64,000 nucleotides of DNA from IMG/VR virus record IMGVR_UViG_3300018475_000125. The stretch is one strand, 5' to 3'. Source of the stretch: a virus. A program made the position numbers and the translations under genes. Under the pieces are notes generated by a model. It was not told the origin of the DNA. It saw only the letters and a program-made list of their open reading frames with translations, and did not search any database. This document shows positions 1-61,478 of the stretch, in pieces; position 1 is the first letter of the stretch; the number at the start of each line of letters is the position of its first letter.

Positions 1-378
1 TTTCAGTGGGAGCTGAGTAACCGTCTTTTGGAGAAGTATGATATAATCTGTTTCGAGACGCTGAACCTTCAGGGGATGAGCCGCAGTTTCGGCAGGAAGA
101 TCGGCGAATATGCTCTGTACAGCTTTATTCAGAAGCTGACGTACCTTGCGGAAGCCGCGGGAAAGACCATCATACAGATAGACAGGATGTTCCCGTCTTC
201 GAAACTCTGTTCCTGCTGCGGGTTTAAGAATACGGAGCTGACATTAAGCGACAGGGAGTGGACCTGCCCGCAGTGCGGCAGAAAGCACGACCGGGACATC
301 AATGCCGCTATTAATATACATAACGAAGGAATGGCCCTTTACCATAATCAGGAGAAAGCATGTCCAAAGACAGAGTAG
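1..378 (+). CDS. tnpB: IS200/IS605-family TnpB (OrfB) RNA-guided nuclease, C-terminal part; 5' end lies outside the window
   Basis: C-terminal zinc finger CxxC...CxxC (CSCCG...CPQCG) followed by the RuvC-III motif HDRDINAAINI typical of TnpB/Cas12-like OrfB. The ORF runs to the window edge. Confidence 0.75.
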   Translation, partial: FQWELSNRLLEKYDIICFETLNLQGMSRSFGRKIGEYALYSFIQKLTYLAEAAGKTIIQIDRMFPSSKLCSCCGFKNTELTLSDREWTCPQCGRKHDRDINAAINIHNEGMALYHNQEKACPKTE

Positions 379-2003
379 AAGAGTATCTCGGAAAGAGAGA
401 CTGGCGCATTCAGGAGAATGCCAATTCCAATTACTGTTATCAGAGTCTGATCAGCCACGTTGCCGGGGCGGCGATCGCGGAGCATACCCTGGAGAATGTA
501 TATCCGAAAGAGATAGCGGACCTGCATCGGGACGGCAGTATGCACATCCACGACCTTTCCAACGGCATTGTTCCCTACTGTGCGGGCTGGTCGTTCATGG
601 ATATTCTCCTGAAGGGTTTTGAGGGCGGACCGGGACGCTTGAGGAGTGCGCCTGCGAAGCATCTGGATTCCATACTTGCCCAGCTGATGAACTTCCTGAT
701 CACATTGCAGGGTGAGTGGGCGGGAGCGCAGGCGATCAACTCCTTCGATACCTTTCTGGCTCCGTTCGTCCGTGCGGACAACCTGACGTATGAGCAGGTC
801 CGGCAGGATATTCAGCGGTTCGTGTTCATGCTTAACACCGGAATGCGTCTTGGGCAGGCGAGTTTCACCAACGTAACGCTGGACTGGAACTGTCCGAAGG
901 ACCTGAAGGACACGCCGGTCATTATTGGCGGGGAACCTCACGACGAGTGGACGTATGGGGATTTCCCGGAAGAGATGGCGATGATCAACCGCGCTTTTCT
1001 GGAAGTGATGCTTGAAGGGGACGCCGACGGGCGCATCTTTTCCTTCCCCATCCCGACGTACAGCATGACGCCTGATTTTGACTGGAAGGATGAGAATGCC
1101 CGGCTTTTATTTTTAGCTACGGGCAAGTACGGGCTGCCGTATTTCCAGAATTTCATCAGTTCCGACCGGGACCCCAGTGAAGTGCGCAGCATGTGCTGCC
1201 GTCTTCAGCTTTCCCTCAAGGATCTTCGCCATAAGGGAGGCGGACTGTTCGGCTCCGGCGACAAGACAGGAAGCATTGGCGTAGTGACGCTGAACCTGCC
1301 GCGGATCGGGTATCTCGCGAAGGATAAGGAGGACTTCAGGGCACGGCTGGGATCCCTGCTGGACAGTGCCATGCAGGCTCTGGAACTTAAGCGCGGGGAA
1401 GTGTCGAAGAACTTCGAGAACGGGCTGATGCCTTATTCCAAGATCTACCTTGGTACGCTGGATAATCACTTCCATACCATCGGCACGATCGGGATGCACG
1501 AGATGTGCATGAACTTCCTGGGAAAGGGGATCGAGACAGAAGAAGGACGCGCTTTTGCACTGGAGGTCCTGGAAATGATCCGGGAACGCCTCCAGGAATT
1601 TCAGGAAAAAACAGGGCACCTGTATAATCTGGAAGGTGTCCCGGGCGAGGGAACTTCGTATCGTCTTGCGAAGGAAGACAGAGACCGGTATCCGGAAATG
1701 TACACATCGGGAACGGAGGTGCCGTACTACACGAATTCCTCTCAGCTTCCGGTCGGCTACACGGATGACTTGTTTGAGGCATTGCGGCATCAGGATGAAC
1801 TCCAGTGCGCCTATACCGGCGGAACGGTCTTTCATGCCTATATAGGCGAGCAGGTCGAGGATCCGGAGACAGTGGGCAATCTGGTCCGCAAGGTCTTTGA
1901 GCACTTCCGTATGCCGTATTTCTCCCTGACGCCGACATTCAGTATTTGTCCCGTGCACGGCTACATCCCGGGTGATCACGAGACGTGTCCTTACGATACC
2001 TGA
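360..2003 (+). CDS. nrdD: anaerobic ribonucleoside-triphosphate reductase (class III RNR) NrdD
   Basis: The N-terminus aligns with T4 NrdD (ENANS..., GSMHIHDLS, GVVTLNLPRIGYL). A glycyl-radical-like HGY lies near the C-terminus. The length is 547 aa. Confidence 0.8.
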   Translation: MSKDRVEEYLGKRDWRIQENANSNYCYQSLISHVAGAAIAEHTLENVYPKEIADLHRDGSMHIHDLSNGIVPYCAGWSFMDILLKGFEGGPGRLRSAPAKHLDSILAQLMNFLITLQGEWAGAQAINSFDTFLAPFVRADNLTYEQVRQDIQRFVFMLNTGMRLGQASFTNVTLDWNCPKDLKDTPVIIGGEPHDEWTYGDFPEEMAMINRAFLEVMLEGDADGRIFSFPIPTYSMTPDFDWKDENARLLFLATGKYGLPYFQNFISSDRDPSEVRSMCCRLQLSLKDLRHKGGGLFGSGDKTGSIGVVTLNLPRIGYLAKDKEDFRARLGSLLDSAMQALELKRGEVSKNFENGLMPYSKIYLGTLDNHFHTIGTIGMHEMCMNFLGKGIETEEGRAFALEVLEMIRERLQEFQEKTGHLYNLEGVPGEGTSYRLAKEDRDRYPEMYTSGTEVPYYTNSSQLPVGYTDDLFEALRHQDELQCAYTGGTVFHAYIGEQVEDPETVGNLVRKVFEHFRMPYFSLTPTFSICPVHGYIPGDHETCPYDT

Positions 2004-2011
2004 GGTATTCA

Positions 2012-3091
2012 ATGATCAATTTTCATTTATTGTATAAGGCCGCGCAGGCGGAGCGGATGCTGAAAGAAGCAGGTCCTGCTCCGGGTCCTGCACAGCGGGC
2101 AGCGGGTCCTGTGAAGAATCCGGCGGCAGTGCCGGCTCCGAGGATGAGCACTCTGGATGTTTTGGCGCGGCAGAACGCCAGACCGACGGCGGCGGGTCCT
2201 CCGCCGGGATGGGTCCCGCCTTCCATGCGAAATATCGGACCCGTACCGGTCCCGCGCAGTCCGCAGGGCGGTCCGGCTCCGAAAAGGGTGTACATTCCGC
2301 CTGTGCGTCAGGTTCCTGGATCTGTTACAGGTCCGGGCCGCAAGTTTGCGGCGCTTATAACAAAGGAGACGGAGGCGCAGAACAGGTATCTACGGGATCC
2401 TGCTTCTTTAGTGGAGGGGACACAGCAGGCAGAAGAGGCGTGGCGGGCTGCAGCAGAGAGGGCACAGCGGGAGTATTATCGGAAGCTGTGGGCGGAGGAT
2501 AAGAAACTGGATCCGACACGGCCGCGCTGGTATCACGGCACTCCGCAGACCGGCTTGTATCCTGTACCGCGTTCGGAGAGAGCTTATCTGGATCGGACGT
2601 TTCCTTCGGGCGGCGGATGGACAGGTGAAGGTATCCACGGTACCCACGAGTTTGTGCTGCGTACTACACCGGATGAGCTGCCGTATGCGTTGGGAGTTAT
2701 AGAGCGGTATTCGAAGCATCACGGGGTACGGGTGGCACCCACAACACCGCGGGCTATAAGCGATGGAGCGGAGCAGACAGCGCTCTCGCTGCTTAAGTGG
2801 TGTCCGCGTGGCTTTATTATGCCTTCTCCTCTCAATACTGGTGCCGTGTGGTCAGGCCCGGGTGATCGCGATATGGACTCGTTTTATAAAGAAGACGACG
2901 GCAAGAAGATTGAGCGTTGGGACGGAACCGCGTACGACTATGGAACACGAAGGCGCAGGGCAGATCAGGCTGACGACGACAATTTTTATAATATAGGGAC
3001 ACCGACCCGGTACTCGGATAATGTTAGTCTTGGTGGCAAACAGTGGGAGCCTGTGCGGGGAAATGTCAAGCCTCCGGCGGCTAAGCGGTAG
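2012..3091 (+). CDS. hypothetical Pro-rich protein
   Basis: ORF with a GAGG RBS. The N-terminal half is low-complexity and Pro/Ala/Gly-rich. No recognisable domain. Confidence 0.4.
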   Translation: MINFHLLYKAAQAERMLKEAGPAPGPAQRAAGPVKNPAAVPAPRMSTLDVLARQNARPTAAGPPPGWVPPSMRNIGPVPVPRSPQGGPAPKRVYIPPVRQVPGSVTGPGRKFAALITKETEAQNRYLRDPASLVEGTQQAEEAWRAAAERAQREYYRKLWAEDKKLDPTRPRWYHGTPQTGLYPVPRSERAYLDRTFPSGGGWTGEGIHGTHEFVLRTTPDELPYALGVIERYSKHHGVRVAPTTPRAISDGAEQTALSLLKWCPRGFIMPSPLNTGAVWSGPGDRDMDSFYKEDDGKKIERWDGTAYDYGTRRRRADQADDDNFYNIGTPTRYSDNVSLGGKQWEPVRGNVKPPAAKR

Positions 3092-3097
3092 ATTTAA

Positions 3098-3125
3098 GAC
3101 CCGATTCCTGTCGGGTCTTTTTTTA
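3098..3125 (+). terminator. rho-independent terminator
   Basis: Hairpin GACCCGA / TCGGGTC with loop ttcctg, followed by T8. Confidence 0.7.
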
Positions 3126-3188
3126 TCTCTTGCAGACAGGCGGTTTTTACATAACATAGAGAGGAGTTATTAATAAAAGGAGGTTTTT

Positions 3189-3416
3189 ATGGACACGAAA
3201 CGAAGCACGGTCGAGGAGCTGCTTGCCCGGTTGGCTATTGCGGCGGACACGATCGACGACTGTCTGGTCTTCTTGAGGAGAGCGCAGCTGCGCTCAGATG
3301 AGCAGATAATGGCGGAAGCAAACCTGGGCATGGGGCTGCATTGCCTGTGGGAGACGCTTTCACACGCACAGACAAAGGAACAGGGGAGGATTAAAGATGA
3401 CACTGTCAGCGGATGA
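3189..3416 (+). CDS. hypothetical protein (75 aa)
   Basis: Strong RBS AAAGGAGG 7 nt upstream of the ATG. Confidence 0.45.
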   Translation: MDTKRSTVEELLARLAIAADTIDDCLVFLRRAQLRSDEQIMAEANLGMGLHCLWETLSHAQTKEQGRIKDDTVSG

Positions 3417-3804
3417 GTACAGGAGCAGTCCCTCGCGGATATTCAACGGGTATGCCTGCGGGATGCCGTGCAAGGAACAGGAACAGGTGCAGGCGATCCT
3501 GAAATACATGTCGAAAAAGAAGAACTTCACCGTGGGAGGGGAACGGATGCACTTTTTGGCATGGGCAGTCAGGGAGCTTATCGAGAGCCGGGCGGTCTAT
3601 GCGAAAGGGTCGCCGTTTAAGAGATGGCTTCGGGAATGGGCTTCGAAGATGCGCCCGTCCTGGTATGTCACGCCGCAGGACGGGGGTCCGCTGGGGAACG
3701 ATTCCTACGAGCGGGCGATAGCGGAGACAGTCGCGGATCTGGTCAGGCTCCTTTATCCGGAAGAGCTGGAGGACTGGCTGCCGAAAGAGGCATGGAAGCG
3801 TTGA
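3397..3804 (+). CDS. hypothetical protein (135 aa)
   Basis: ORF overlapping the upstream gene by 20 nt. No recognised domain. Confidence 0.4.
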   Translation: MTLSADEYRSSPSRIFNGYACGMPCKEQEQVQAILKYMSKKKNFTVGGERMHFLAWAVRELIESRAVYAKGSPFKRWLREWASKMRPSWYVTPQDGGPLGNDSYERAIAETVADLVRLLYPEELEDWLPKEAWKR

Positions 3805-3919
3805 ACAGCAAGGGCAGGGATGCCCTTCTTTTTTTTACTTAAAAACATAGGTTTTTGAGGCATATACCATGAGCAACTTATGGTGAGCTGTAAATGATCG
3901 CTTTTTTGAAGGAGAAAGT

Positions 3920-4306
3920 ATGAAAAGAGTAGTTGTGTTTATGGGTATTCTTTTGGCGTCTACTGTTACTGTTACTGCTGGCGAGTTTCCTAAGGGTATT
4001 GGGCGGATTATTGCTGGCAACCCGCCGCGGGAGAAGCCGGTAAAAAAAGAAAAAGTTCTGCCCGATGATCTCGGGCGGATCGTCGCTGGCAACCCGCCGC
4101 GGGAGGAGCCGGCAAAGAAAAATAAGGAGGCGAGAGTTGTGACGGACGAATTGGTCCGCACAATGCTCGGGCTGCCTCCAGCGCCGGAGAAAGAGAGCCC
4201 GGTGCGGAAGATGGATCCGGAAGAACGGATCCAAATTCTGATTGGACCCCCTCCGGCGCCGCAGCCGGATCCGTGGCATCCTGAGTGGAAAGGAGGTCTG
4301 GGGTGA
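3920..4306 (+). CDS. secreted repeat protein (signal peptide plus two GRI[IV]AGNPPRE[KE]P[AV]KK repeats)
   Basis: RBS GAAGGAGAAA. N-terminal hydrophobic signal peptide MKRVVVFMGILLASTVTVTAGE. Internal tandem peptide repeat, Pro-rich C-terminus. Confidence 0.5.
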   Translation: MKRVVVFMGILLASTVTVTAGEFPKGIGRIIAGNPPREKPVKKEKVLPDDLGRIVAGNPPREEPAKKNKEARVVTDELVRTMLGLPPAPEKESPVRKMDPEERIQILIGPPPAPQPDPWHPEWKGGLG

Positions 4307-4875
4307 TCCGGTCCTTCTTTTTCCATCTGATGCTGTTAGTGGCTCTGCCGTTCTTCTGGACGGCGGAGCCGCAGCCGGTTCAAGCCACGGTGCCGGCTGT
4401 TACGGACGAGGTATGGCAGTTAAATTGGTTCGTAGCCTGTCTGAATAGGGTGGGGCTGGAATACTCCGCAGAGGAGGATGACCGGCTCCGGGACAGGGTG
4501 CTGAATTATACACTCTGGCTGCTGGAAACGCGGCCGGAAAGCTACTATTGGGTCTACGACTCTAAGACGGGAGTTTTAGAGAAGTTTGACCCGATGACAG
4601 GAACTCTGTGCTTGTCGTCGCTTTGCCGCGACGCGGGCACGCTGCGCCTCTTTCCTCTGGAGGCGCAGATCGTATGGGATATGTATAAGGTCCCGTATGA
4701 TCATCGGCAATACAGTACAGCCTGGGTCCTCTTGAAGGCTCAGACTGAATACTGTGTTGCCCGTGAGCCGGGGCGGTTCCGGCTTTGGATACTCGCGACG
4801 GAGGAACAACTCCGGAACGAGTACCCGGGTATTTTCCGGCATGAACCGGAGATCCGGGATAGAACAGAAGAATAA
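4303..4875 (+). CDS. secreted hypothetical protein (GTG start overlapping the upstream stop, GTGA)
   Basis: RBS AAAGGAGGT then GTG at 4303. Signal-peptide-like N-terminus (MIRSFFFHLMLLVALPFFW, then an ...A-T cleavage-like site). Confidence 0.4.
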   Translation: MIRSFFFHLMLLVALPFFWTAEPQPVQATVPAVTDEVWQLNWFVACLNRVGLEYSAEEDDRLRDRVLNYTLWLLETRPESYYWVYDSKTGVLEKFDPMTGTLCLSSLCRDAGTLRLFPLEAQIVWDMYKVPYDHRQYSTAWVLLKAQTEYCVAREPGRFRLWILATEEQLRNEYPGIFRHEPEIRDRTEE

Positions 4876-4891
4876 GGATAAGGATAAGTAG

Positions 4892-4917
4892 ACCCGGCAG
4901 TGTGCCGGGTTTTTTTC
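4892..4917 (+). terminator. rho-independent terminator
   Basis: Hairpin ACCCGGCA / TGCCGGGT followed by T7. Confidence 0.7.
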
Positions 4918-4972
4918 GTTTTCATTTAGCGGAGGCGCGTAGGGCGCTCCGTGTAATTTTAAGGAGAAAAAT

Positions 4973-6229
4973 ATGTTGTATTCTGAATTCGCTAAGAGTT
5001 TTAATAAGAAAGCCATTATGTACATTCATAATGGCGGATTCCATGCTGATGACGTTCTGGCTGTAGCACTGGTGAAGGCGGTGCTGCCCAGCGTTTGCTG
5101 GAAGCGGACCCGGCACGTCCCGGACGGTGCCTTCGCGGTGGATGTTGGTGGTGGTCCATACGACCACCACTCCGTGCCGCGCCCGCGGTGGGAGGAGTAT
5201 GACGCCCCGCATTGCGGGGCATCCCGTTTGTGGGTCGACCCCTTCTTTCAGGAGGTCTTCACTCGCCGGTTCGGCGTCGGACCGGCGGGAAGGCGGTGGA
5301 TGGAAGAGACCCTCTTCCTTCCGATTTGTCGGGAGGACAATGGACTGCCCAGCCAGGGCACCAATTTATTGGGTGTAGTCAGGCATATGAACCCTGGCTG
5401 GGACGCGGTCCCGGACCAGGATTTCGAAGATACTTGCTTCGCCGAGGCCGTGGCCTTGGCGGAGAAGGTGCTGGAGGCTTGTATCAATCAAGCTCGGTGC
5501 GTCGACAGGGCCCAGTACGTCCTGGAGGATATTCCGGACGAGGAGATCGTCCGGATCCCCGCCGGGTTGTCCGGCTGGAAGGACCGTTTGTCCGGTAAGA
5601 TCACGAAATTCGTGATCTATCCGGCTTTATCCGGTGGATGGTCGGTGCAAGCCGTACCACCCGCGGCGGACCGGGTGACGGAACAAAAGATTCCGCACCC
5701 GGCGTCCTGGCGAGGACTTCGCAACGAAGCCCTCTCGGAAGCCTCCGGACTTCCTGGCGGTATATTTTGCCACGCGTCTGGCTTCCTGTCTATCTGGCTG
5801 ACGGAAGCGGACGCGTGGCGGGCAGCCCGTTGGATGGTACACAACTCCGGTTCGATTTATGAACCGGAATTGTTTACGGAGGATGCCCTTGCGGATCTTC
5901 GGGACGACGACGTCCAGAAAATTCCCCCGGGACTTAAGGGCTGGGAGCCAATCCTGGCAAACTTCGCGAAGGCGAAGTTCGTGATCGATTGGTATCTTGG
6001 CGCCTGGCGGATCCGCGGTGTACCGTCAAGCCCGGAGCCAGGGGCGCCGGTTAAAGTGCCGTTCCCGAAAGAATGGCACAACAAGATAGAAGGGGAGCTG
6101 GTCCGGGAGACCGGTCTACCCGCCGCGATAGAGTGTCAAGAGGATTATGCCCTCTGGGGTACGATTCTTGACGCGCTGGATGCCGCGCGCCTGGCGATCA
6201 AGTTGTTTGAGGGTGACTCGAAAGAGTAA
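4973..6229 (+). CDS. MYG1/UPF0160-family metal-dependent phosphoesterase-like protein with a duplicated C-terminal module
   Basis: N-terminal HNGGFHADDVLA ... VDVGGGPYDHH matches the MYG1 signature (HxGxFHxDE ... VDVGG..YDHH). RBS AAGGAGAAAAAT. The C-terminal half contains two paralogous modules of about 90 aa (IPAGLSGWKD... and IPPGLKGWEP...). Confidence 0.55.
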   Translation: MLYSEFAKSFNKKAIMYIHNGGFHADDVLAVALVKAVLPSVCWKRTRHVPDGAFAVDVGGGPYDHHSVPRPRWEEYDAPHCGASRLWVDPFFQEVFTRRFGVGPAGRRWMEETLFLPICREDNGLPSQGTNLLGVVRHMNPGWDAVPDQDFEDTCFAEAVALAEKVLEACINQARCVDRAQYVLEDIPDEEIVRIPAGLSGWKDRLSGKITKFVIYPALSGGWSVQAVPPAADRVTEQKIPHPASWRGLRNEALSEASGLPGGIFCHASGFLSIWLTEADAWRAARWMVHNSGSIYEPELFTEDALADLRDDDVQKIPPGLKGWEPILANFAKAKFVIDWYLGAWRIRGVPSSPEPGAPVKVPFPKEWHNKIEGELVRETGLPAAIECQEDYALWGTILDALDAARLAIKLFEGDSKE

Positions 6230-6306
6230 CCTTCGCGAGACCCCAGTCCTCCGGGGGTGTAATAAATACGGAGTTTTTGTTTTTCTATTTTTTTCAGGAG
6301 AGAAAC

Positions 6307-6507
6307 ATGAACGAACAAGACGTTCTGAAGGTCCATGGGTCCCTGTCGACACTGCGTCAGCAGTTTCACGAGTTGGAAGATAAAATCGCCGAGTTGCTGG
6401 CGAATTTTTATGTCTCCCTCAAGTGGACTCAGCTGGACCTCGACGAAGAGTTGGGGCTGCGGGACGCACTGGAGCTGTTGACAGCCGAGCAGGCTGAAGA
6501 GCTGTAG
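6307..6507 (+). CDS. small acidic hypothetical protein (66 aa)
   Basis: ATG with RBS CAGGAGAGAAAC. Helical, acidic. Confidence 0.35.
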   Translation: MNEQDVLKVHGSLSTLRQQFHELEDKIAELLANFYVSLKWTQLDLDEELGLRDALELLTAEQAEEL

Positions 6508-6642
6508 TCTGTTCATAGCCGTGGTGAGGAGTCGTAGGGACCCTCGCCGCGTTTCTCTTTTTTTACCTATTGGAACTCTTTACAGGTTTGGTTTTTCTTT
6601 TATCATAGAAGGAGACACGATACTTTACAGAAAGGGAATGAG

Positions 6643-7344
6643 ATGGGAGTTGGGAATTTACATGGCTTAGAGAAATGCAGTCTGGTAGACTATCCGGGAA
6701 AGATCTCGGCAGTTCTTTTTTTCGGAGGCTGCAATCTGCGGTGCCCGTTCTGTCACAATCCGGCGCTGGTGCTGGATCCGGACAGTCAGCCGCAGGTGTC
6801 GTTTAATGAGTACATCCGGTTCCTGAACGGGCGTAAGGGATTACTGGACATGATCGTCTTTTCCGGAGGCGAACCGACATTGTGTCCAGATCTTGGGGAG
6901 TGGATCTCCGCCGCGAAGACACGGCATTTTGACACGAAGTTGGACACGAACGGAACAAGACCGGAGATCGTGCGGAAGGTGCTGGATGAGCTGAGCCACC
7001 TGTCGCTGGACTTTAAGACCGCTCCGGATCGGATGAGCGAGCTGGGAATGGATTTTCAGGAGAAGTGGCTGGAGACGCTGGATCTGGCGTGCTCCGCCCC
7101 GAACATCCAGCTGGAAGTCCGCACGACGATCCATCCGCAGATCCAGACGGCGGAAGACTTGAAGGCAATGGGCGTGCTTCTGAAAGAGCGCGGCATTACC
7201 CACTGGGTCTGGCAGCAGTTCCGCCGGATCGAGACGGTCGCGGCGGGTTTTGAGACATTGCCGATCTACACGCCGGATAACCTGTTCGATATGGCGGAAG
7301 AGATCCATTGTGATGAACTTCAAATCAAGATTCGCGGTATATAA
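6643..7344 (+). CDS. nrdG: anaerobic ribonucleotide reductase activating protein (radical SAM) NrdG
   Basis: CNLRCPFCHN (CxxxCxxC radical SAM cluster) near the N-terminus and GGEP. Size is typical for NrdG and the gene pairs with nrdD. Confidence 0.8.
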   Translation: MGVGNLHGLEKCSLVDYPGKISAVLFFGGCNLRCPFCHNPALVLDPDSQPQVSFNEYIRFLNGRKGLLDMIVFSGGEPTLCPDLGEWISAAKTRHFDTKLDTNGTRPEIVRKVLDELSHLSLDFKTAPDRMSELGMDFQEKWLETLDLACSAPNIQLEVRTTIHPQIQTAEDLKAMGVLLKERGITHWVWQQFRRIETVAAGFETLPIYTPDNLFDMAEEIHCDELQIKIRGI

Positions 7345-7606: not shown

Positions 7607-8119
7607 ATGGATCATGAAAGGCTTAAATCGGCACTGGAGTTATTGTGGGACATTCCCGGGGAATGGACCTGCGGGGAACTGATGTCCCGGTATCCGTCCT
7701 TTATCGATGCGCTGGCGGATGTGCTTCACGCGGCGGGCTACCGGTTTCCGCGGGTATTCTCGTGGGTGCATGAGATCGCGTCCTGGGCAGTGACCGCGGA
7801 GAAGGACAGGAAGTATTATCATATCTACCGGGCAATGGATCATCTTCCGGCGATGGACTCTGAATCGCTTTCGGAGGAGGAGTTTCGGCGGCGGATCGTT
7901 CGGTTATTAATAACCTTCGCGGAGCGTCCCGTACCGGGACAGGATCTTCGGGAGACACACCGGAGGACAGCCTACTTCTCCGCTCTGGTGCGGATACTGG
8001 ATCACCTGAAGCTCTGGGACAGCTCTCTGGCGGAGACGCAGGCATTGATCCGGGATATGAGATGGGGGCGGGTCACAAAAGACGGCATGGACAGGATCGA
8101 AGGACAGCTGAATGGATAA
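7607..8119 (+). CDS. hypothetical protein (170 aa)
   Basis: RBS GAGGGAAG. Its stop overlaps the RNAP gene start by 8 nt. Confidence 0.4.
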   Translation: MDHERLKSALELLWDIPGEWTCGELMSRYPSFIDALADVLHAAGYRFPRVFSWVHEIASWAVTAEKDRKYYHIYRAMDHLPAMDSESLSEEEFRRRIVRLLITFAERPVPGQDLRETHRRTAYFSALVRILDHLKLWDSSLAETQALIRDMRWGRVTKDGMDRIEGQLNG

Positions 8120-11100
8120 CTTGAAGGATTTTCGGGAAGTCGGGGATATTGAAGCTACCCGGCAGGCGATCTGGGATCAGGCATTGGAAGCGGCATCCTC
8201 GCTGGAGCCGGTGAGCAACAGCCGATACACACTGGGGCTGACGGACGTCCGCTGGCAGGGAAAGGACGTCTTCCCGAAGGCGGAGCATAAAAAGGCTCTG
8301 ATGAACGGGACCTATCTGACCCGAAAACTCTCCGGAACGTGGACGCTTACAGACAACGCTACCGGACAGCAGGTCGCCAAACGCCGTACGGTCATTGCGC
8401 ACGTGCCGTATATGACAGATATGGGGACCTTTGTACGCGGCGGGAATGACTACACGCTGGCGCACCAGCTGCGTCTGAAGCCGGGGGTCTACACCCGCTG
8501 GCTGGATAACGGTGAGCTGGAAGCGCATGTGAACGTTTCCAGGGGGCTGGGGCACAAGATCTATCTGGATCCGGCGTCCGGTATCTTCAAGCTCAAGATG
8601 GGGCAGGCTTCTGTTCCGGTAGCCGATGCACTGGAGATCCTCGGTGCTCCGCAGGATAAAATGCGCAAGGCGTGGGGCGAGGAGCTTTACCGGCAAAATA
8701 CATTCAAGCGCGATCCGAAAGCGCTCAACAAGCTCTACGAAAAACTGACTTACGGCAAGGGTGAGGCGCAGACGCAGGAAGAGAAGAAGCTCGCCATTCA
8801 GCAGGCATTCGCAAAGATGGGGCTGGATCCGCAGGTCTCGCAGGTGACGCTCGGTAAGCCGTACTCGGTCGTAGATCCGGATGTTATTCTGGATACGACC
8901 GCCAAGCTCCTGCGCATCAACAAGGGGCTTCAGGATACGGATTCCCGCGACGACATGGCTTTTCAGCGTCTGTTTGGTCCGGAGGATCTCATCGCGGATA
9001 AAATACGCTCTTCCGGTAATCTGATGCGGCAGTATCTCTGGCGGGCATCTCAGCGAAATGCACTGGATAAGATACCTGCGGGAGCTTTTGACGCGAATGT
9101 GGACAGTGTACTTATCGGCACGGGGCTGGGAATGCCTATCGAAGGGATCAACCCGATCGAAACGTTCGATAACCAGTTCCGCGTAACGCGCCTTGGCGAG
9201 GGCGGTATCGCTTCGCTGGACGCGATCCCGGCTTCTGCCAGAAACGTGCATCCTTCCCAGATGGGACTGATCGACCCGATCCGTACGCCGGAATCGCTGA
9301 AAGTCGGTGTGGATGCCCGTCTTGCCGGAAACGTCCGCAAGGGAAAGGACGGGCAGATCTACACACGGCTTCTGGATAAGAAAGGAAACAGTCAGTGGCG
9401 GTCTGCTACGGATATTGCGCAGTATGCCGTAGCGTTTCCGGGAGCGATGCAGTCGCCGTATAACTTCGTTCCGTGCGTGAAGGCCGGACGGATGCTGATG
9501 CTTCCGAAGGCGGAGATCGACTTTGCCTATCCGAATATGCAGTCGGCGCAGCATGCTACCGGGCGGCTGGTGCCGATGACTGCCAACGTAAAAGGGCAGC
9601 GTGCCGTGATGGCCGCCAGAATGCTGACGCAGGCGCTTCCGCTTCAGAACGCGGAGGCTCCGCTGGTCCAGACCGGGATGCCGGATGAGGAAGACAAGAG
9701 CTACGAGGAGCACTACGGCTCCCGCTTTGGGGCGATCCGAGCTACGGAACCGTGTCAGGTCATTGACGCGGGTCCGGATAAGGTGACGGTACGCACGAGG
9801 TCAGGAGAGACCAAAGATATTGAACTCTATCGGGATCTGGTATTCAACCGAAAGACGGGACTGTCTCAGCAGGCGGTAGTCCAGCCCGGCACGGTCCTGA
9901 AGCCGGGGGACCTGATCGCGCGTTCCAACTTCACGGACGACAAGGGTGCGATGGCTGTCGGGATGAATGCCAGGATCGCGTTCCTGCCGTATCAGGGACT
10001 GAACTTTGAAGATGCTATCGTGGTGAGCGAGAGCTTTGCGAAGCGGATGGCGTCGGAGCACTACTACAAGAACCGGCTTGCCGGAGGCTCGGACACGACA
10101 GTCGATACCCAGAAATTCCTTGCCATGAAGCCGGGAATGTACACGAAAGAGCAGACGGCGAACTTTACGGAGGATGGTTTGATCAAGCCGGGCACGGTAG
10201 TGCGTCCTGGCGATCCGCTTATCCTCGCCGTCACGAAGATCGAACCGACAGAGGCGCAGCGAAAGCTCGGAAGAAAGGCGCATTGGCGGGATTCTTCCGT
10301 GAAATGGGAGCACCATGACGACGGGATCGTGACGGATGTCTATCAGGACGCCAAGGGTGCGCAGGTCATCGTAAAATCCCGGCAGGAACTGCAGGTCGCG
10401 GATAAGATCTCCGGGCGGTACGGCAATAAGGGAGTCGTTTCCGCCATCGTTCCGGATGCTGAACTGCCTTCTTTGCCGGATGGAAGCAAGCCGGAGGTGC
10501 TTATGTCCCCTCTGGCGATCGTTGGACGCGTGAATCCAGGCTTTGTTTTGGAGACTCTGCTCGGAAAAATAGCGAAAGTGACCGGCAAACGCTATGCTCT
10601 GAAGGATTTTGGAGGCAGTACGGAGGATGTTGCGCGTTTTGTGGCGGAGGAAGCGAAGAAATACGGCATCAAAGACGTGGAAGACATGATCGATGACTCG
10701 GATCCGGACCATCCGAGGGTCATTCCGCAGGTCCTTAACGGCTACACCTACATGATGAAGCTCCATCACTCTGCGGAATCGAAGGCGCAGGGACGCGGAA
10801 TAGGCTCCTACACCAACGATCTTCAGCCTGCGAAGGGCGGAGATGACGGCGCGAAGAAGATCGGGATGCTGGAACTCTCCGCGCTGCTCAGTCACGGTGC
10901 TCTGAGCAACGTCGCGGACATGAAATACGTCAAAGGGCAGGAAAATCTGGACTATTGGCGGCAGTATACCGCCGGATACAACCCGCCGACACCCCGGATC
11001 CCTTACGTTTACCACAAGTTCGTGAATTTTTTGAAGGGTTCCGGCATTCACGTGCAGCGGGAAGGCTCCAGAGTCCACATTATGGCGCTGACCGCGAAGG

Positions 11101-12497
11101 ATGTGGACCAGATGACCGGCGATAGAGAGCTGAAAGGGGTCAAAGACCCGCGGACGGGACTCATGACGCTGCCTACAGTCGCCTGGGATGACAATTTGAA
11201 GGCACTTCCGGGCGGACTTTTTGATCCGAAGACCACCGGAGGTCACGCAGGGAACCAGTGGTCGTACATTCAGCTCGATCAGCCGTATCCGAACCCTGTC
11301 ATGGAGCAGCCTTTGCGCTTGATGCTCGGTTTGACAGAGAAAGAATTCCGCGATACACTGGCAGGGAAGCATAAATTATCCACAGGGACAGGTCCGGAAG
11401 CGCTTTACGCCGCTGCGAAGGCGCTGAATATCGAAAATGAGCTGATCCGAGCCAGAAATGACATAAAATCGGGCAGAAAAACGTATCGGGACGCTGCGGT
11501 CAAGCGGCTGGGCTACCTTAAATCCGCTCAGAGACTCAAACAGGAGCCGAAAGACTGGTTCCTGACGAAAGTTCCGGTCATTCCGCCCTATTTTCGTCCG
11601 GTTTCCCAGATGGGCGATAAAAAAATGCCGCTTGTTGCGGATGCGAACTACCTCTACAAACAGCTATTTGAAGCAAATCAGGCTTACAGGTATAATAGGC
11701 GCGTGTTTGGTGATGCAGAGTCCGGTGATCTGAGCTTGAACGTCTACGACTCATTCAAAGCGGTAACTGGGCTTGGTGAACCCACTACCTCGGAGCTTCA
11801 GCAGAAGGAAGTGAAGGGACTTTTGAAGTCGATATTCGGTTCCGGACCGAAATATTCGATGATGCAGACCCGTTTGCTCGGAACGCCGGTCGATATGGCG
11901 GGAAGAGGCGTCGTGGTGCCCAATCCGGACTACGATATGGATACGGTAGGCATTCCGGAGAACATCGCATGGGATACTTACAAGCCGTTTGTGATCCGGG
12001 AGCTTCGCAGACACGGCAGAGCGGGCATTCAGGCGATCAATGACGTGGAAAACCGCACGCCGGCAGCCCGTGAGATGCTTCAGAAGGTCATGGCATCACG
12101 TCCCGTGCTTGTAAACCGTGCTCCAACGCTCCACAAGTTCGGGATCATGGCTCTAATGCCGAAATTGATCAAAGGGGACGCCATCCGGGTGAATCCATTT
12201 GTTTATCCGGGCGCTGCGATGGATAATGACGGCGATACGATGGTTTTTCACGTCCCGTCTACGGATGAAGCGGCGCAGGAAGCGATCGAACGGATGCTTC
12301 CATCCAGAAACCTCCTTTCGCCGTCGGATTTTACCGTCATGCCGAAGATCACCAAGGAACATTTGATAGGACTCTACGAATCCACACGCCCCAGACCCGG
12401 AACGCCGACCCGAACCTTCCGAAATTCAGCCGATGTCGTCGCCGCCTGGCGCCGGGGCGATCTGGATCCGCATGAGAAAATAAGAGTAATGGAGTAA
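8112..12497 (+). CDS. multisubunit-type DNA-directed RNA polymerase, fused beta / beta-prime N-terminal (catalytic) subunit
   Basis: Beta-subunit motifs in order: GTFVRGGNDYTLAHQLRLKPGVY (compare E. coli [24 protein letters not shown]), PYQGLNFEDAIVVSE (NFEDA), SGRYGNKGVVS (GRHGNKG). These are followed in the same polypeptide by beta-prime motifs: VIPPYFRPV, NRAPTLHKFG (NRAPTLH), and PGAAMDNDGDTMVFHVP, a variant of the catalytic NADFDGD that keeps all three Asp. Confidence 0.8.
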   Translation: MDNLKDFREVGDIEATRQAIWDQALEAASSLEPVSNSRYTLGLTDVRWQGKDVFPKAEHKKALMNGTYLTRKLSGTWTLTDNATGQQVAKRRTVIAHVPYMTDMGTFVRGGNDYTLAHQLRLKPGVYTRWLDNGELEAHVNVSRGLGHKIYLDPASGIFKLKMGQASVPVADALEILGAPQDKMRKAWGEELYRQNTFKRDPKALNKLYEKLTYGKGEAQTQEEKKLAIQQAFAKMGLDPQVSQVTLGKPYSVVDPDVILDTTAKLLRINKGLQDTDSRDDMAFQRLFGPEDLIADKIRSSGNLMRQYLWRASQRNALDKIPAGAFDANVDSVLIGTGLGMPIEGINPIETFDNQFRVTRLGEGGIASLDAIPASARNVHPSQMGLIDPIRTPESLKVGVDARLAGNVRKGKDGQIYTRLLDKKGNSQWRSATDIAQYAVAFPGAMQSPYNFVPCVKAGRMLMLPKAEIDFAYPNMQSAQHATGRLVPMTANVKGQRAVMAARMLTQALPLQNAEAPLVQTGMPDEEDKSYEEHYGSRFGAIRATEPCQVIDAGPDKVTVRTRSGETKDIELYRDLVFNRKTGLSQQAVVQPGTVLKPGDLIARSNFTDDKGAMAVGMNARIAFLPYQGLNFEDAIVVSESFAKRMASEHYYKNRLAGGSDTTVDTQKFLAMKPGMYTKEQTANFTEDGLIKPGTVVRPGDPLILAVTKIEPTEAQRKLGRKAHWRDSSVKWEHHDDGIVTDVYQDAKGAQVIVKSRQELQVADKISGRYGNKGVVSAIVPDAELPSLPDGSKPEVLMSPLAIVGRVNPGFVLETLLGKIAKVTGKRYALKDFGGSTEDVARFVAEEAKKYGIKDVEDMIDDSDPDHPRVIPQVLNGYTYMMKLHHSAESKAQGRGIGSYTNDLQPAKGGDDGAKKIGMLELSALLSHGALSNVADMKYVKGQENLDYWRQYTAGYNPPTPRIPYVYHKFVNFLKGSGIHVQREGSRVHIMALTAKDVDQMTGDRELKGVKDPRTGLMTLPTVAWDDNLKALPGGLFDPKTTGGHAGNQWSYIQLDQPYPNPVMEQPLRLMLGLTEKEFRDTLAGKHKLSTGTGPEALYAAAKALNIENELIRARNDIKSGRKTYRDAAVKRLGYLKSAQRLKQEPKDWFLTKVPVIPPYFRPVSQMGDKKMPLVADANYLYKQLFEANQAYRYNRRVFGDAESGDLSLNVYDSFKAVTGLGEPTTSELQQKEVKGLLKSIFGSGPKYSMMQTRLLGTPVDMAGRGVVVPNPDYDMDTVGIPENIAWDTYKPFVIRELRRHGRAGIQAINDVENRTPAAREMLQKVMASRPVLVNRAPTLHKFGIMALMPKLIKGDAIRVNPFVYPGAAMDNDGDTMVFHVPSTDEAAQEAIERMLPSRNLLSPSDFTVMPKITKEHLIGLYESTRPRPGTPTRTFRNSADVVAAWRRGDLDPHEKIRVME

Positions 12498-12503: not shown

Positions 12504-13025
12504 ATGAGTCAGTTTACGATGCAGAAGCAGGCACACGTCCGCCTGATCAAGCTGGCGAACGCGGCTGCGGTTATCCGTAGGACGCGCAGGCAGGTGAAAT
12601 GGGCAAGCGGGACAACACCTGATACCGAGGCTGCTGCACCCAGCGGGGAGGCTACTGCGGCGGCTACGCCCGCGGGACCGCCATCGGAGCCAGTTGTGCC
12701 GAACTCGGATACCGGGGGAGACACCAGCTGGCTTGACTGGGCGAAGACGCCGGCGGGTATTGGTACTTTGGCGGGTGTCGGGATCGGCGGAGCGCTGGGT
12801 GCTTCTCAGTTCGGTCCTTTAGGCGGACTGGTTGGTGCTGCGGCCGGTGGTTTTGTCGGCAATTATGCTGCGCCGTGGTTTACGTCGGAAGATGAGGAGG
12901 GACTTGGTGGTTTGTATATACCGTACACTGCTAACCTGAACTGGTACCCGCAGTCTCCGCCGATCGCCGCTCAGTATGACTGGTCCCGTAAGTGGGATGC
13001 CGCGAGGGGCGCAGACCTGGGGTAG
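12504..13025 (+). CDS. glycine-zipper membrane protein (hypothetical)
   Basis: C-terminal GxxxG-rich segment (GTLAGVGIGGALGASQFGPLGGLVGAAAGGFVG). Pro/Ala/Thr-rich linker. Confidence 0.4.
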   Translation: MSQFTMQKQAHVRLIKLANAAAVIRRTRRQVKWASGTTPDTEAAAPSGEATAAATPAGPPSEPVVPNSDTGGDTSWLDWAKTPAGIGTLAGVGIGGALGASQFGPLGGLVGAAAGGFVGNYAAPWFTSEDEEGLGGLYIPYTANLNWYPQSPPIAAQYDWSRKWDAARGADLG

Positions 13026-16692: not shown

Positions 16693-19275
16693 ATGTTAAA
16701 AGTCATATCCAGCGATGCCTGGAAGGATAGTTTATGGAGCGACGAGACGCCGCGGTCGGCACTGATCAAGTGTTCGTCGCGCGGGGTGGTGGACCGGAAG
16801 TCGTTTGTGAAGCGGGCATGTGCTTCGTCAGACGAACTGCTCGACAAGTTCGCGTCCATGGAGAAGAAGCCGGGTGAAGAATATGTGCATTTGATCGGGC
16901 TGGGATCCACGGAAGCATATGGCCCGAACCGGAATGGCGACGGCTTTTCGGAGGAAGCGTGCCGGAAGTATCATCCTACTTTCGTAAAGGATGCGCGGGT
17001 CTATCGCGATCACAAAAACACGGATAAGTCCAAGAGCTACGGACTTGTGAAGGCGTCCGCGTTCAATGAGGCCATGTCCCGTGTGGAGCTGATCGTGGCG
17101 CTGAACGCTACCGAAGCCGCGGCGCGGGCTAATAACGGCTTGCTGGCGGATAAGGAGATGGAGAAACTGGCAGCCGGGAAGGATCTCCCGGTATCGATGG
17201 CCTGTCTTACAAATCCGGACTACCCGATCCTGACGCGTGATAAGGGTTACGTGCCGATCAAGGATATTCAGGTCGGTGATCTTGTGTGGACAAAAGACTC
17301 GGGTTGGAAACCAGTAACGGCGTTGAACCGCCGGAGATATACCGGGCAACTTTGCGAACTGCACATAACAGGGCTTCCCTTTCCGCTGGAGCTGACGGCG
17401 GATCATCTTATGTGGGCGAAGTGTCTGCGCAGTGACAATCCGCGAAAAGAGATCACACGTTTCTTTGCGGGGGACTCGGCGGAGGCAGGTCCGGAGTGGG
17501 TGCCGGCAGAGAAGCTGCAGATCGGTGATTACTTGTTTTATCGCGCTGTATCCAGACACACGGCTTTTGGTGCACTGGATGACACAGAGCTGGCAGCGGT
17601 TCTGGGATACTACATGGCGGAAGGCTATGTCAGTTTTTGCAAAGGGAATCCTAACACGGTAGCTTTCGCGTGTAACGTGAGCGACTCGCTCCCCAGAAAG
17701 GTTCCGAAGTATCTACACGAAATGTGGCCGGAGATTACAGTAAGTATCAGACCGCATCGCAGTTCAGTGCAGGGGCTGGTAGTTTCTGTGTACTCAGCGG
17801 AGCTTGCCCGATTTGTGAATAAGCTGATACGCACGGGCAGTCACGACAAGATTGTCCCGCCGGAAATCAGTAATGCCCGGCGGGAAGTACAGCTTGCGTT
17901 CCTCGGTGCATGGATCGACGGCGACGGCTACGTTGATGACAAAGGGGCGCATATCTCGACTTGCAGCCGGAGTCTTGCGCTGCAGGCTCGCGATTTGGGC
18001 ATGCAATTGGGTTACGCGGTGTCTATTTACTGCATAGATCATACCCGCTGTGCGACCAGTGGAATGAAGAACAGCGGAGTTGAGTTCCAGATCAATTTCG
18101 CGAAACCTGATCTCGCGGAGCTGGCAGCTTATTCGGACAAGATCAGCAGCAGGATACCCGAAGTTACAGATCGAGAGCGAGGCAGCAAGATACGTACGTA
18201 TCAGGACGGATTCTTTGCTTACAAGATTAAGGAGATCCGGTACCGCGCGGTTACGGATATTCAGACGTATAACTTTGAGGTCGCCGATGACCCTTCTTAC
18301 TCCGCGGCGGGATTGATCAGTCATAACTGCAGTGTCCCCTATGATATTTGTTCGTTTTGTGGAAATAAGGCGCAGACCACGGCGGAGTACTGCACCGGGA
18401 CACATGAAGGCGGGAAGTGCCGGGCTGGCGGACTGAAGCACCATATGGGAAAGATCGCCAGTGTGGATGGGAAACTGGTCCAGCTTTATGCGGATAACAC
18501 AAGACCGTCCTTTTTTGACATCTCGCATGTCTTCGTACCGGCCGATCGTATCGCGTACTCTTCCGGCAGACTCACGAAGCAGGCTTCCGCAGGTACACCA
18601 GTAACTTACGGAGGGGCAGAACTTGCCCGTCAGCTGTGCGTGACCGGGGGCGGACACTATATGGAGGATCCGGAGCAGGTCCACGCACTCCAGCTGCTGA
18701 AGAGAGCTGTTGCGGACTTCCATGCCAGACGGCTCTGGGAAAAGCGTGCTTCTTTCCTTTCCGTGCTGAACCACATTCCGCTGAAGAAGGTCGCCGAGGC
18801 GAAGCGGTATTCTTTTGACGCGGTACAGAAAGCATTTCAGGACCTCCATGTCTGCCTGACGCCCAGCCAGTTTGTGCAGTTGACCGGGGATCTTCCGCTG
18901 GAAAAGGCGGCACAGCTCGGAGAGATCATCGCTCCGCTTTCCAATGACTTCTTGGAGAAGTGCGCTGCAGCGCAGGCGCTTCCGAAACCGGCGGTCCACG
19001 CTCCGGAACCGCTTTTCCATTGGGCTGCTTCCCAGAATCTTCCGTCCATTCATCCGGACAGGTTCTTTAAGCAGGCTGCACTGGCGGCGGTTTCTCCGGC
19101 ACCTGATTTTACGCTGAGTCCTGAAGAAGTCTACGCTCTGGGCGAGGATCCTTCGATCCGGAAACTGGCGGCTCAGTATGCTCTGTATAAAGCGGCGTTT
19201 GTTGCCAATCTTCCGTCTTCGCTGCGGGAGACGGCAGCGGAGCTTTTGGTAGGGCGCGACTACACGGGGTTCTGA
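16693..19275 (+). CDS. putative prohead protease (HK97 S78-like) with C-terminal scaffold-like helical domain, interrupted by an intein
   Basis: N-extein RDHKNTDKSKSYGLVKASAFNE...VELIVAL resembles the HK97 gp4 region WNHNTDLVLGRT...LRVTIDL. PVSMA|C...|CSVPY flanks the intein like the S78 GMSFGF serine motif. The C-extein is long and alpha-helical. RBS AAAGGACAAAG. Confidence 0.45.
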   Translation: MLKVISSDAWKDSLWSDETPRSALIKCSSRGVVDRKSFVKRACASSDELLDKFASMEKKPGEEYVHLIGLGSTEAYGPNRNGDGFSEEACRKYHPTFVKDARVYRDHKNTDKSKSYGLVKASAFNEAMSRVELIVALNATEAAARANNGLLADKEMEKLAAGKDLPVSMACLTNPDYPILTRDKGYVPIKDIQVGDLVWTKDSGWKPVTALNRRRYTGQLCELHITGLPFPLELTADHLMWAKCLRSDNPRKEITRFFAGDSAEAGPEWVPAEKLQIGDYLFYRAVSRHTAFGALDDTELAAVLGYYMAEGYVSFCKGNPNTVAFACNVSDSLPRKVPKYLHEMWPEITVSIRPHRSSVQGLVVSVYSAELARFVNKLIRTGSHDKIVPPEISNARREVQLAFLGAWIDGDGYVDDKGAHISTCSRSLALQARDLGMQLGYAVSIYCIDHTRCATSGMKNSGVEFQINFAKPDLAELAAYSDKISSRIPEVTDRERGSKIRTYQDGFFAYKIKEIRYRAVTDIQTYNFEVADDPSYSAAGLISHNCSVPYDICSFCGNKAQTTAEYCTGTHEGGKCRAGGLKHHMGKIASVDGKLVQLYADNTRPSFFDISHVFVPADRIAYSSGRLTKQASAGTPVTYGGAELARQLCVTGGGHYMEDPEQVHALQLLKRAVADFHARRLWEKRASFLSVLNHIPLKKVAEAKRYSFDAVQKAFQDLHVCLTPSQFVQLTGDLPLEKAAQLGEIIAPLSNDFLEKCAAAQALPKPAVHAPEPLFHWAASQNLPSIHPDRFFKQAALAAVSPAPDFTLSPEEVYALGEDPSIRKLAAQYALYKAAFVANLPSSLRETAAELLVGRDYTGF
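17203..18327 (+). other. intein (375 aa) with LAGLIDADG homing endonuclease domain
   Basis: Begins with CLTNPDYPIL (Hint block A), contains two LAGLIDADG motifs (LAAVLGYYMAEGYV and LAFLGAWIDGDGYV), and ends with ...NFEVADDPSYSAAGLISHN followed by extein Cys (SHN|C). In frame with the host ORF. Confidence 0.8.
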
Positions 19276-26142: not shown

Positions 26143-26241
26143 AATTTCTTCCGTATTACAGATGCCTGATTTGCGCGGCATGAAGCCTACAGCACGACGT
26201 ATAATTGCGCAGTATACCTGTTTTCCGGGAAAAGGACAAAA

Positions 26242-26931
26242 TCAGTCCTCAAACAGGTCACGCAGGTTATTTACCCGGATCTCCGGATCCAGAGAAAAGT
26301 AAAGGCTTGGCTTCGGCAGCGTGCGCTGGACACGTTTCTGGAGTACCCACGAATTTACAATATCCGCGCAGTCCATCCACTTGTCCAGAGCACGCTGGGA
26401 CCAGCCTGTGAAGATCTTGAGCTCTTTCAGAAGCCAGGCCAGTTCATAAAGCTGATCCGGAGTAATGTGGCGGACGCGAATATCCTCGGTCAGGGACAGG
26501 ATCGACGACAGCACTCGGCATAGCGCGGCTATTTTTACGACGTCGGTCCCCTGTGCCAGCTGGTTTGTGTAGCGGGGGATACGCTGATCCGACGGCATGC
26601 GCATATCCGGGTTCAGAATGAGTGCGGCGCCTGCGACTTCGATATGTGACCGCAGCATGACTGTTTCAAACGGGAGTCCGGTGTATTGCTGCGCCAGTGA
26701 AAGGAGTGCGGTATGCCATGTGACCTCTGCCAGTTCGGAGACTTCCGGATGCAGTATTTCATAGCCCGGACGGTAGCGGGAACGAAAAACCTCTTCCGTG
26801 AGGTCAGCAGTATCGATCACGAAAGAGGCGAGAGGTTTCCCGCAGTCCGCGATCCTTGAGTTGAGGAGCTCGCGGACAAAACGGGTATTTTCGGAACGGG
26901 ACAACCGGGGACGTGTGTTTTTGTTTTCCAT
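26242..26931 (-). CDS. hypothetical protein (229 aa)
   Basis: ORF only. Confidence 0.4.
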   Translation of the reverse strand: MENKNTRPRLSRSENTRFVRELLNSRIADCGKPLASFVIDTADLTEEVFRSRYRPGYEILHPEVSELAEVTWHTALLSLAQQYTGLPFETVMLRSHIEVAGAALILNPDMRMPSDQRIPRYTNQLAQGTDVVKIAALCRVLSSILSLTEDIRVRHITPDQLYELAWLLKELKIFTGWSQRALDKWMDCADIVNSWVLQKRVQRTLPKPSLYFSLDPEIRVNNLRDLFED

Positions 26932-26967
26932 ATATCACTCTTTCAGGCAAAAGCCCGCCAGAGCGTA

Positions 26968-60142: not shown

Positions 60143-60222
60143 AATTCCTCCTGATTCATGAGATTATAGTAAACTGCGAGCCGGCTGTCAATAGGTCTTT
60201 TTTGCTAGGAGTATCTATAGCG

Positions 60223-60258: not shown

Positions 60259-60293
60259 CTGATAGCATAGATGTAGTGAGTAAAGGAGGAGAT

Positions 60294-60575: not shown

Positions 60576-60586
60576 GAGATTCGATA

Positions 60587-61462: not shown

Positions 61463-61478
61463 GACGAGCACCCTGTTT

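Follow-up and report, generated by a model that had tools for sequence, protein, structure and literature searches.

The viral record IMGVR_UViG_3300018475_000125 of IMG/VR, analysed here as one stretch of 64,000 nucleotides (hereafter the window), contains a long open reading frame (ORF) in which the β subunit of RNA polymerase is joined to only the front part of β′. The question raised by this locus is whether such a protein is a working polymerase subunit and, if so, to which enzyme it belongs. We propose, with a probability of roughly 0.75, that it is the large catalytic subunit of a phage-encoded multisubunit RNA polymerase of the bacterial type, which works with a separate partner polypeptide and a sigma factor and is packaged in the virion. 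A preliminary description, made from the DNA alone, had read the ORF as a single polypeptide of 1461 aa made up of β and the catalytic N-terminal part of β′ (β′-N), and matches to Pfam, NCBIfam and Protein Data Bank (PDB) entries bear this out. The RpoB and RpoC domain models, whose use it had proposed, delimit the two modules given in Table 1. Among the motifs that it had listed, GTFVRGG, LNFEDAIVV, NRAPTLH and AAMDNDGDTM are all present in the translation, whereas the motif given as GRHGNKG reads GRYGNKG.

The β module is of full length, though compact. Pfam detected Rpb2 domain 3, the fork (PF04565; residues 344–405, E 7.5e-7), and Rpb2 domain 6 (PF00562; residues 582–902, E 7.7e-50), both above the gathering score. 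The NCBIfam rpoB models span residues 199–982 and score 265 bits against an equivalog cut-off of 896, so that the β part of the fusion is a divergent homologue rather than an orthologue. In PDB sequence matches, residues 25–981 were collinear with residues 31–1056 of a cyanobacterial β (8gzg_C), and the β alignment extended to the natural C-terminus of bacterial β (residue 1267 of 1269 in 9n9p_C), with the flap region aligned free of gaps in the latter comparison. The nearest solved structures were bacterial β and β′ chains, not phage enzymes, and the fusion protein is ~25–30% identical to the bacterial subunits. The GRxGNKG motif has a catalytic role in RNA polymerases; in an alignment of 18 sequences of the family, G768, G771 and K773 of this motif were invariant and G774 nearly so.

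The joint between the two modules is direct. In a family profile covering the C-terminal 520 residues, β′ residues 19–53 (Bacillus subtilis numbering) follow immediately on the C-terminus of β, indicating a head-to-tail joint with no real linker. The profile then resumes at residues 149–540 of B. subtilis β′ (6wvj_D), equivalent to residues 160–550 of Escherichia coli β′ (10ma_J). Between these two parts, ~30 profile positions replace the ~95 residues 54–148, with ~65 missing; the β′ zinc-binding domain is thus deleted, a feature on which the preliminary description was silent, and no Cys cluster was found in residues 1035–1075 of the translation. The clamp-helix-aligned region and the catalytic barrel are both kept. 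Pfam placed Rpb1 domain 2 (PF00623) at residues 1321–1394 above the gathering score (E 4.3e-21), Rpb1 domain 1 gave only a sub-threshold match, and the NCBIfam model rpoC_TIGR matched residues 1075–1460 with its positions 143–534 of 1147. The protein ends 86 residues past the last catalytic Asp, and the ORF, whose end corresponds to residue ~550 of E. coli β′, includes neither the bridge helix nor the trigger loop (Rpb1 domains 4–5).

Structure prediction of the junction, also put forward in the preliminary description as a check, gave an ordered hairpin. In an AlphaFold2 model of residues 560–1461, with a mean predicted local distance difference test (pLDDT) of 71.8, the junction strands at model residues 420–425 and 428–433 form one hairpin, over which the pLDDT of 10-residue blocks is 61–85. 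The fold matches bacterial β and RpoC1/β′: the top Foldseek matches were cyanobacterial and plastid RpoC1 (γ), bacterial β′ and bacterial β, with E-values down to 2e-29, and their global template modelling (TM) scores were low, as expected of a multi-domain fragment.

Table 1. Positions in the window of the fusion gene, its modules and motifs, and of other features discussed in the text
Feature	Position	Strand	Remarks
Fused RNA polymerase subunit gene (β + N-terminal ~45% of β′)	8112..12497	+	1461 aa, ATG start
β module: fork (Rpb2_3), flap region, catalytic barrel	8112..11063	+	residues ~1–984
GRYGNKG β-barrel motif (GRHGNKG of cellular β)	10413..10433	+	residues 768–774
Fusion junction: last β strand, two-residue turn, first β′ strand	11046..11111	+	residues ~979–1000
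β′ N-terminal module	11064..12494	+	residues ~985–1461; ends at E. coli β′ ~550
NRAPTLH motif	12114..12134	+	residues 1335–1341, translation
Mg-binding heptad AMDNDGD (cellular: NADFDGD)	12216..12236	+	residues 1369–1375
Sigma-70-family factor	42519..43274	-	251 aa; Pfam Sigma70_r3 + r4
754-aa protein	23917..26181	-	homologue directly after the gene for the β′ C-terminal half in 84 related loci; here inverted
TTATTAATAA palindrome, AT-rich	7904..7913	.	207 nt upstream of the fusion-gene start
TTATTAATAA, sites in the window	3167, 7904, 14216, 21036, 23904, 30259, 42790, 43371, 50291, 56520, 61506		
TTATTAATAA, sites in relatives	L003 9955, 14424; L086 5728, 10149		

The preliminary description had also drawn attention to the unusual heptad around the Asp triad, and AMDNDGD is indeed what the translation reads. 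Within the 18-sequence alignment, D1371, D1373, G1374 and D1375 of the heptad and N1335, R1336, A1337, P1338 and L1340 of NRAPTLH are invariant, and besides the Asp triad ~190 positions do not vary. Counted over 190 family members, the heptad is GADFDGD in 118, the canonical NADFDGD in 48, NMDFDGD in five (including relatives 73–74% identical to the present protein), NLDYDGD in five, AADYDGD in three (Salmonella phage Arash and Vibrio phage D69) and GADNDGD in one; AMDNDGD occurs in three, all of which are one strain, that of the present phage. Other members of its subclade (see below) retain NADFDGD. On these comparisons, AMDNDGD is a strain-level substitution at non-liganding positions and not a trait of the family, and every conserved catalytic residue is kept in this two-barrel protein.

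The preliminary description regarded the architecture as unusual. It is not peculiar to this phage: more than 600 protein clusters and 195 matching stretches in IMG/VR share the design. A search of 5.8 billion proteins returned 634 homologues at E ≤ 1e-10, nearly all of 1450–1550 aa, and many of them sit on contigs of 180–213 kb. Metagenomic members of the family are 47–74% identical to the present protein at 100% coverage. The same design is found in cultured phages, namely Arash (gp206; 30% identity at 99% coverage) and the Vibrio phages D69, D148 and D181. In a neighbour-joining tree of the fusion proteins, the window grouped with the relatives L003, L086 and L085 (L087 being the same strain) in a subclade that is sister to a large main clade and to which L216 and L217 (60–66% identity) also belong. 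The ORF is uninterrupted in five independent assemblies (JGI, ENA and Logan; different samples), and its first 1297 codons are identical to those on a JGI contig of 170,682 bp. Across the five assemblies, 27 synonymous and 4 nonsynonymous codon differences were counted; by this measure the gene is under strong purifying selection. Compared with the nearest distinct relative, identity was 73% in the fusion gene against 30–55% in the flanking genes, making it the best-conserved gene of the neighbourhood. The 5' end of the fusion gene overlaps the end of the preceding ORF by 8 nt, with start and stop in ATGGATAA, and GAAGGA stands upstream. According to the annotation of the window, the neighbours of the fusion gene are tail sheath, baseplate and prohead-type genes, and in relatives they are likewise virion-structure genes.

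The sigma-70-family gene named in the preliminary description is genuine: in addition to the Pfam domains of Table 1, its product matches the SigB/F/G subfamily (E 9e-12) and, over residues 60–240, the sigma70 superfamily model, and L217 has an orthologue (46% identity) at a distance of 9 kb from its own fusion gene. This sigma factor is the probable promoter-specificity subunit of the fusion polymerase; the link between the two is drawn from the conservation, in the fusion protein, of the β flap and the clamp-helix-aligned region, which are sigma docking sites in bacteria. The other claims about accessory subunits fared less well. The helix-hairpin-helix (HhH) protein at 26968..27390, described as like the α C-terminal domain (CTD), gave sub-threshold matches only (HHH_8, E 0.0068); an α-subunit model matched it in the CTD region at E 2.3e-4, scoring 20 bits where the cut-off is 277, and no α chain was matched in PDB. 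Its 229-aa neighbour, tried as an α-like subunit, had no match either. The view that the phage encodes most of a multisubunit transcription apparatus thus goes too far for the window, which yielded no β′ C-terminal half, no clear α or ω homologue among the ORFs scanned and only a weak resemblance to α-CTD. The published list of Arash proteins likewise includes only β, β′ and sigma as parts of a polymerase (PMC10585845). The HhH protein belongs to a three-gene block kept in the subclade, which encodes HhH, ~230-aa and ~750-aa proteins, the first of ~140 aa (23917..27390, minus strand, in the window; 8735..12238 in L225).

In the rest of the family, the missing part of β′ is encoded nearby. Arash gp216 (606 aa) and D69_0264 (609 aa) carry Rpb1 domain 5, and in 70 of the 84 loci fetched the fusion gene is followed, 1–6 kb downstream, by a homologous gene for a partner of ~625 aa with the bridge helix and trigger loop, most of the remaining 14 having too little downstream sequence. 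The partner gene is adjacent in every outgroup of the window's subclade, and several clusters of fusion proteins and of C-terminal halves have identical longest-contig sizes. The preliminary description had noted that the β′ C-terminal half is absent from both the ORF and the window, and three kinds of search agree with it. No match in the window was obtained when the C-terminal halves of Arash and D69 served as tblastn and phmmer queries, when a profile hidden Markov model (HMM) of 63 sequences was run with --max against all six-frame ORFs, or when hhalign was applied to three unannotated proteins of the window (553, 621 and 574 aa). The same HMM was run on the six-frame ORFs of L003, L085–L088, L216, L217, L219 and L225; the only match, to a tail-fibre-like protein of L003, was weak (E 9e-5) and was judged spurious.

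Wider searches were no more successful. In profile searches of the 5.8-billion-protein set and of its representatives at 50% identity, the lists were filled wholly by the sister clade, and a calibration with the fusion protein showed that members of the subclade always rank under the sister clade, even when the best-conserved 40-aa segments are used; both large searches being saturated in this way, relocation of the partner is unproven. A degenerate DNA pattern for the trigger loop gave at least 120 matches in IMG/VR, many of them apparently unrelated, and a scan of GTDB genomes found two sister-clade-like loci only. GTDB files L224 (VBAH01000059.1, 199,122 bp; Alphaproteobacteria bacterium) and L223 (RGVZ01000138.1; 'bacterium'), which encode the C-terminal half of the family, as contigs of bacterial metagenome-assembled genomes; they are probably mis-binned phage genomes.

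The ancestral site of the partner gene can nevertheless be traced through the 754-aa protein of Table 1. By tblastn synteny, its gene in the window has different neighbours and no C-terminal-half gene beside it, indicating a rearrangement at the ancestral partner site. Searches with homologues of this neighbour added 22 kb of the genome of one relative, in which the partner gene was still not found. The 754-aa protein itself had no match in Pfam, PHROG, NCBIfam or PDB, and its AlphaFold2 model was of low confidence (predicted TM score 0.32), with no Foldseek match better than E 0.2; that it might be a portal protein was a guess with nothing in its support. The inspection covered at most ~80 kb (~20.0–99.8 kb of the 170-kb contig, JGI 3300032167 Ga0224413_10000878), and the genome is at least 170 kb long, so that the partner gene is probably encoded elsewhere; the simplest reading is that it has moved to another part of the genome.

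The polymerase genes of the family vary in further respects. Several homologues of the fusion gene (P0005, P0007, P0008 and P0064; 1930–2200 aa) contain LAGLIDADG inteins, and two of them are without an intact D-x-DGD string. Many of the C-terminal-half representatives P0241–P0390 match the profile in two or three separate stretches that resume at ~199/210 and ~337, a pattern compatible with inteins or other insertions. The polymerase genes of the fusion family may be intein hot spots. In other clades, a low-complexity protein rich in Pro, Gly and Met (with, for example, PPMDPSMMGG repeats) is encoded between the fusion and C-terminal-half genes (14295..15080 in L005; 15345..15929 in L083), and the Gly/Ala-rich protein of 173 aa encoded right after the fusion gene in the window (12504..13025) may be its counterpart.

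Considering these results, we propose that the active centre of the fusion protein would be completed by a separate polypeptide of ~625 aa carrying the bridge helix and trigger loop, giving a core enzyme, and that in the present phage the gene for this partner must lie beyond the window, elsewhere in a genome that measures at least 170 kb. Promoters would be recognised through phage sigma-70-family factors, of which the window encodes one. The covalent link between β and β′-N may replace the assembly role of the bacterial α dimer; the bacterial polymerase tolerates tethering of β to β′. By analogy with Arash, the enzyme would probably be packaged in the head and then injected for host-independent early transcription.

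Several observations weigh against this proposal. The C-terminal half was found neither in the window nor in its flanks on the 170-kb JGI contig (10 kb upstream, 6 kb downstream), nor within 10 kb on either side of the fusion gene in five relatives of the subclade (44 kb contiguous in one of them). No clear α or ω homologue was seen among the roughly 40 of the window's larger ORFs that were scanned. The heptad AMDNDGD differs from NADFDGD at three positions, and the subclade is more diverged from the outgroups than its sister clade is. Finally, packaging in the virion is known from Arash alone, the protein of which is only 30% identical, and carry-over is possible there.

The last of these points bears on the alternative that survives best, namely an active polymerase that is not packaged but is made after infection for middle or late genes, as are the non-virion enzymes of phiKZ and AR9. 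In purified Arash virions, gp206 was represented by 3516 spectra, the highest number of any protein, gp216 by 1210 and the sigma factor gp10 by 467, and the authors named early transcription or carry-over of abundant proteins as possible explanations (PMC10585845). The abundance of the fusion protein, the C-terminal half and the sigma factor together suggests a packaged sigma-dependent polymerase. Packaging is documented only for this distant phage, whose authors concede that carry-over is possible, and the single polymerase set seen here could serve any temporal class of genes; nevertheless, the orthologue in Arash is the top virion protein by spectral count and is accompanied by its partner and sigma factor, and the gene is embedded among virion-structure genes both here and in relatives. 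We therefore consider an enzyme confined to the infected cell unlikely, though it deserves to be kept in view.

Doubts of another kind arise from the missing partner. If the partner had been lost, the subclade protein might no longer be a polymerase and might persist as a virion protein of some other kind (structural, injected or DNA-binding). The strong current purifying selection on what is locally the best-conserved gene argues against this, as does the retention of the three catalytic Asp residues, GRYGNKG, NRAPTLH and ~190 family-invariant residues. The absence of a partner gene from the reachable sequence of six subclade contigs would accord with such a loss, yet no more than 80 kb was inspected, and the genome has at least 170 kb. 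Likewise, the variant heptad is countered by the canonical NADFDGD in other members of the subclade, leaving the faster evolution of the subclade and the rearranged ancestral partner site, with its downstream neighbour inverted, as further points in favour. On balance, we judge such a change of function improbable. Slightly less probable again, the canonical C-terminal half may have been lost in the subclade while the fusion protein remains a polymerase. Either a non-homologous protein would then stand in for the bridge helix and trigger loop, or these would be dispensed with in a minimal two-barrel enzyme. If true, this loss would be a natural experiment on the dispensability of conserved active-centre machinery.

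It is very improbable that the partners of the fusion protein are subunits of the host (β′, α or sigma) and not proteins of the phage. A partner gene was not found in the window, and a phage sigma factor could in principle redirect the host core enzyme, as reviews have proposed for jumbo phages that have no polymerase (PMC13282480). However, a host β′ of full length cannot supply the missing C-terminal half alone, the fusion protein having an N-terminal half of its own, all other clades of the family encode their own C-terminal half, and identity to the bacterial subunits is only ~25–30%. Finally, an artefact, either an assembly chimera or a frameshift merging adjacent rpoB-like and rpoC-like genes, which the preliminary description had named as what would overturn its reading, is refuted: although a probable 1-nt indel at 45359..49446 means that local sequence errors are possible in the window, assemblies of different samples (JGI, ENA and Logan) all contain the same intact ORF, homologues of equal length number more than 600 and include some from finished genomes of cultured phages, and the continuation from the β C-terminus into the β′ N-terminus is kept across the family.

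The closest systems in cultured phages are those of Arash, D69, D148 and D181, in which proteins of ~1525 aa show the same β plus β′-N design over 94–99% of their length and keep D-x-D-G-D. Like the present phage, these phages have a sigma gene nearby (gp10/gp196 in Arash) and the fusion gene in a virion-structure module. In Arash and D69 the C-terminal half is encoded 0.6–6.6 kb downstream, whereas in the present phage it is not, within the sequence examined. The fusion proteins are thus already in the databases but have not been characterised as a fusion: gp206 was annotated as 'RNA polymerase subunit beta' and not described as a fusion (PMC10585845), and no description of a β/β′-N fusion was found in the openly accessible papers searched for it, namely the mReC, Arash and 'moraphage' papers and reviews of jumbo phages.

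Among cellular enzymes, the fusions of Helicobacter and Wolbachia have the same joint between the β C-terminus and the β′ N-terminus, and their models PRK09603 and PRK14844 gave the best NCBIfam scores. These scores were 282–312 bits against cut-offs of 4632–5372, with matches reaching model position ~1940–1947 of 2839–2890. The bacterial fusions, of ~2840–2890 aa, contain all of β′, whereas the phage protein stops at ~550 and has no zinc-binding domain. In cyanobacteria and plastids, β′ is also broken after the catalytic domain, and RpoC1 chains are the top structural matches; the NCBIfam γ models match at E 3e-45 over γ positions 180–558. The phage break lies ~68 residues before the cyanobacterial γ/β′ break (the alignment ends at γ 554–558 of 624–626), and while RpoC1/γ stands alone, the β′-N of the phage is fused to β instead.

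The enzymes of phiKZ and AR9 have β in two or three polypeptides, no sigma homologue, no α or ω, and two enzyme sets, one of which is packaged in the virion (PMC7824862, PMC13282480). The preliminary description held that the fusion protein is split differently from these enzymes. This is true of the unsplit β fused to β′-N and of the presence of sigma; the break in β′, however, is of the same kind, after the catalytic barrel of a two-barrel enzyme. Compared with phiKZ and AR9, the present family has β whole and fused, has sigma-70-family genes, shows one polymerase set and is much closer in sequence to the bacterial enzymes. The mReC phages are tailed phages with bacterial-type, deeply branching β and β′ genes among their virion genes (Weinheimer and Aylward, 2020). 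That set was chosen for separate β and β′ of at least 800 aa with NADxDGD (for example, 904 + 1011 aa), and no fusion is mentioned; with its one fused gene and the heptad AMDNDGD, the present phage is set apart by these selection criteria.

The fusion family adds a third, widespread design of phage polymerase beside the fragmented, sigma-less enzymes of phiKZ and AR9 and the separate subunits of the mReC phages. If confirmed biochemically, it would be a compact, sigma-dependent polymerase of the bacterial type that assembles without α and would be useful for studies of assembly and promoter recognition. It would also be a second, independent injected multisubunit polymerase, and a sigma gene in a large phage could then no longer be taken as a sure sign that the phage redirects the core enzyme of its host. 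Since Arash can be grown on Salmonella Typhimurium, these ideas are directly testable.

A palindrome upstream of the fusion gene may be concerned with its expression. With one mismatch allowed, the AT-rich element TTATTAATAA occurs in 11 copies in the window (54% GC), compared with 1.03 expected, and stands just after terminator-like hairpins. In L086 and L003, the relatives nearest to the present phage, its core precedes the fusion gene by 23–46 nt, and it was absent from the main-clade loci. TTATTAATAA may be a promoter element specific to the subclade.

Other features of the window were recorded in passing. The 860-aa ORF at 16693..19275 (plus strand) corresponds to a 488-aa protein of L003 but is interrupted, after residue ~173 of that protein, by an intein (Hint + LAGLIDADG), and its homologue in L086 (855 aa) also has a LAGLIDADG domain; the N-terminus of the host protein looks like that of a prohead protease or core protein. 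At 45359..49446 (minus strand), in the minus-strand block that also includes the sigma gene, two ORFs in different frames (752 and 621 aa) share 37 nt. One gene of 1358 aa is called at this site on the 170-kb JGI contig. Measured from start to stop, the window has 4076 nt here (3n+2), indicating a 1-nt indel, which may be a sequencing error or a real frameshift.

A defence-like island at 58026..62954 encodes a protein with an EcoRII-C endonuclease domain (58026..59336), a DNA methylase (59198..60142), a Band_7 protein (60587..61462) and an AAA_15/AAA_21 ATPase (61728..62954). The exact sequence of this ATPase was found only on short contigs, longer ones having a version of 404 aa. At the other end, an IS605-type TnpB gene ends within the first ~380 bases of the window (compare L088, 8859..10019) and is followed by genes for the anaerobic ribonucleotide reductase NrdD (360..2003), a MYG1-family exonuclease (4973..6229) and a radical-SAM protein (6643..7344). 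This set of genes at 1..7344 hints at an anaerobic host.

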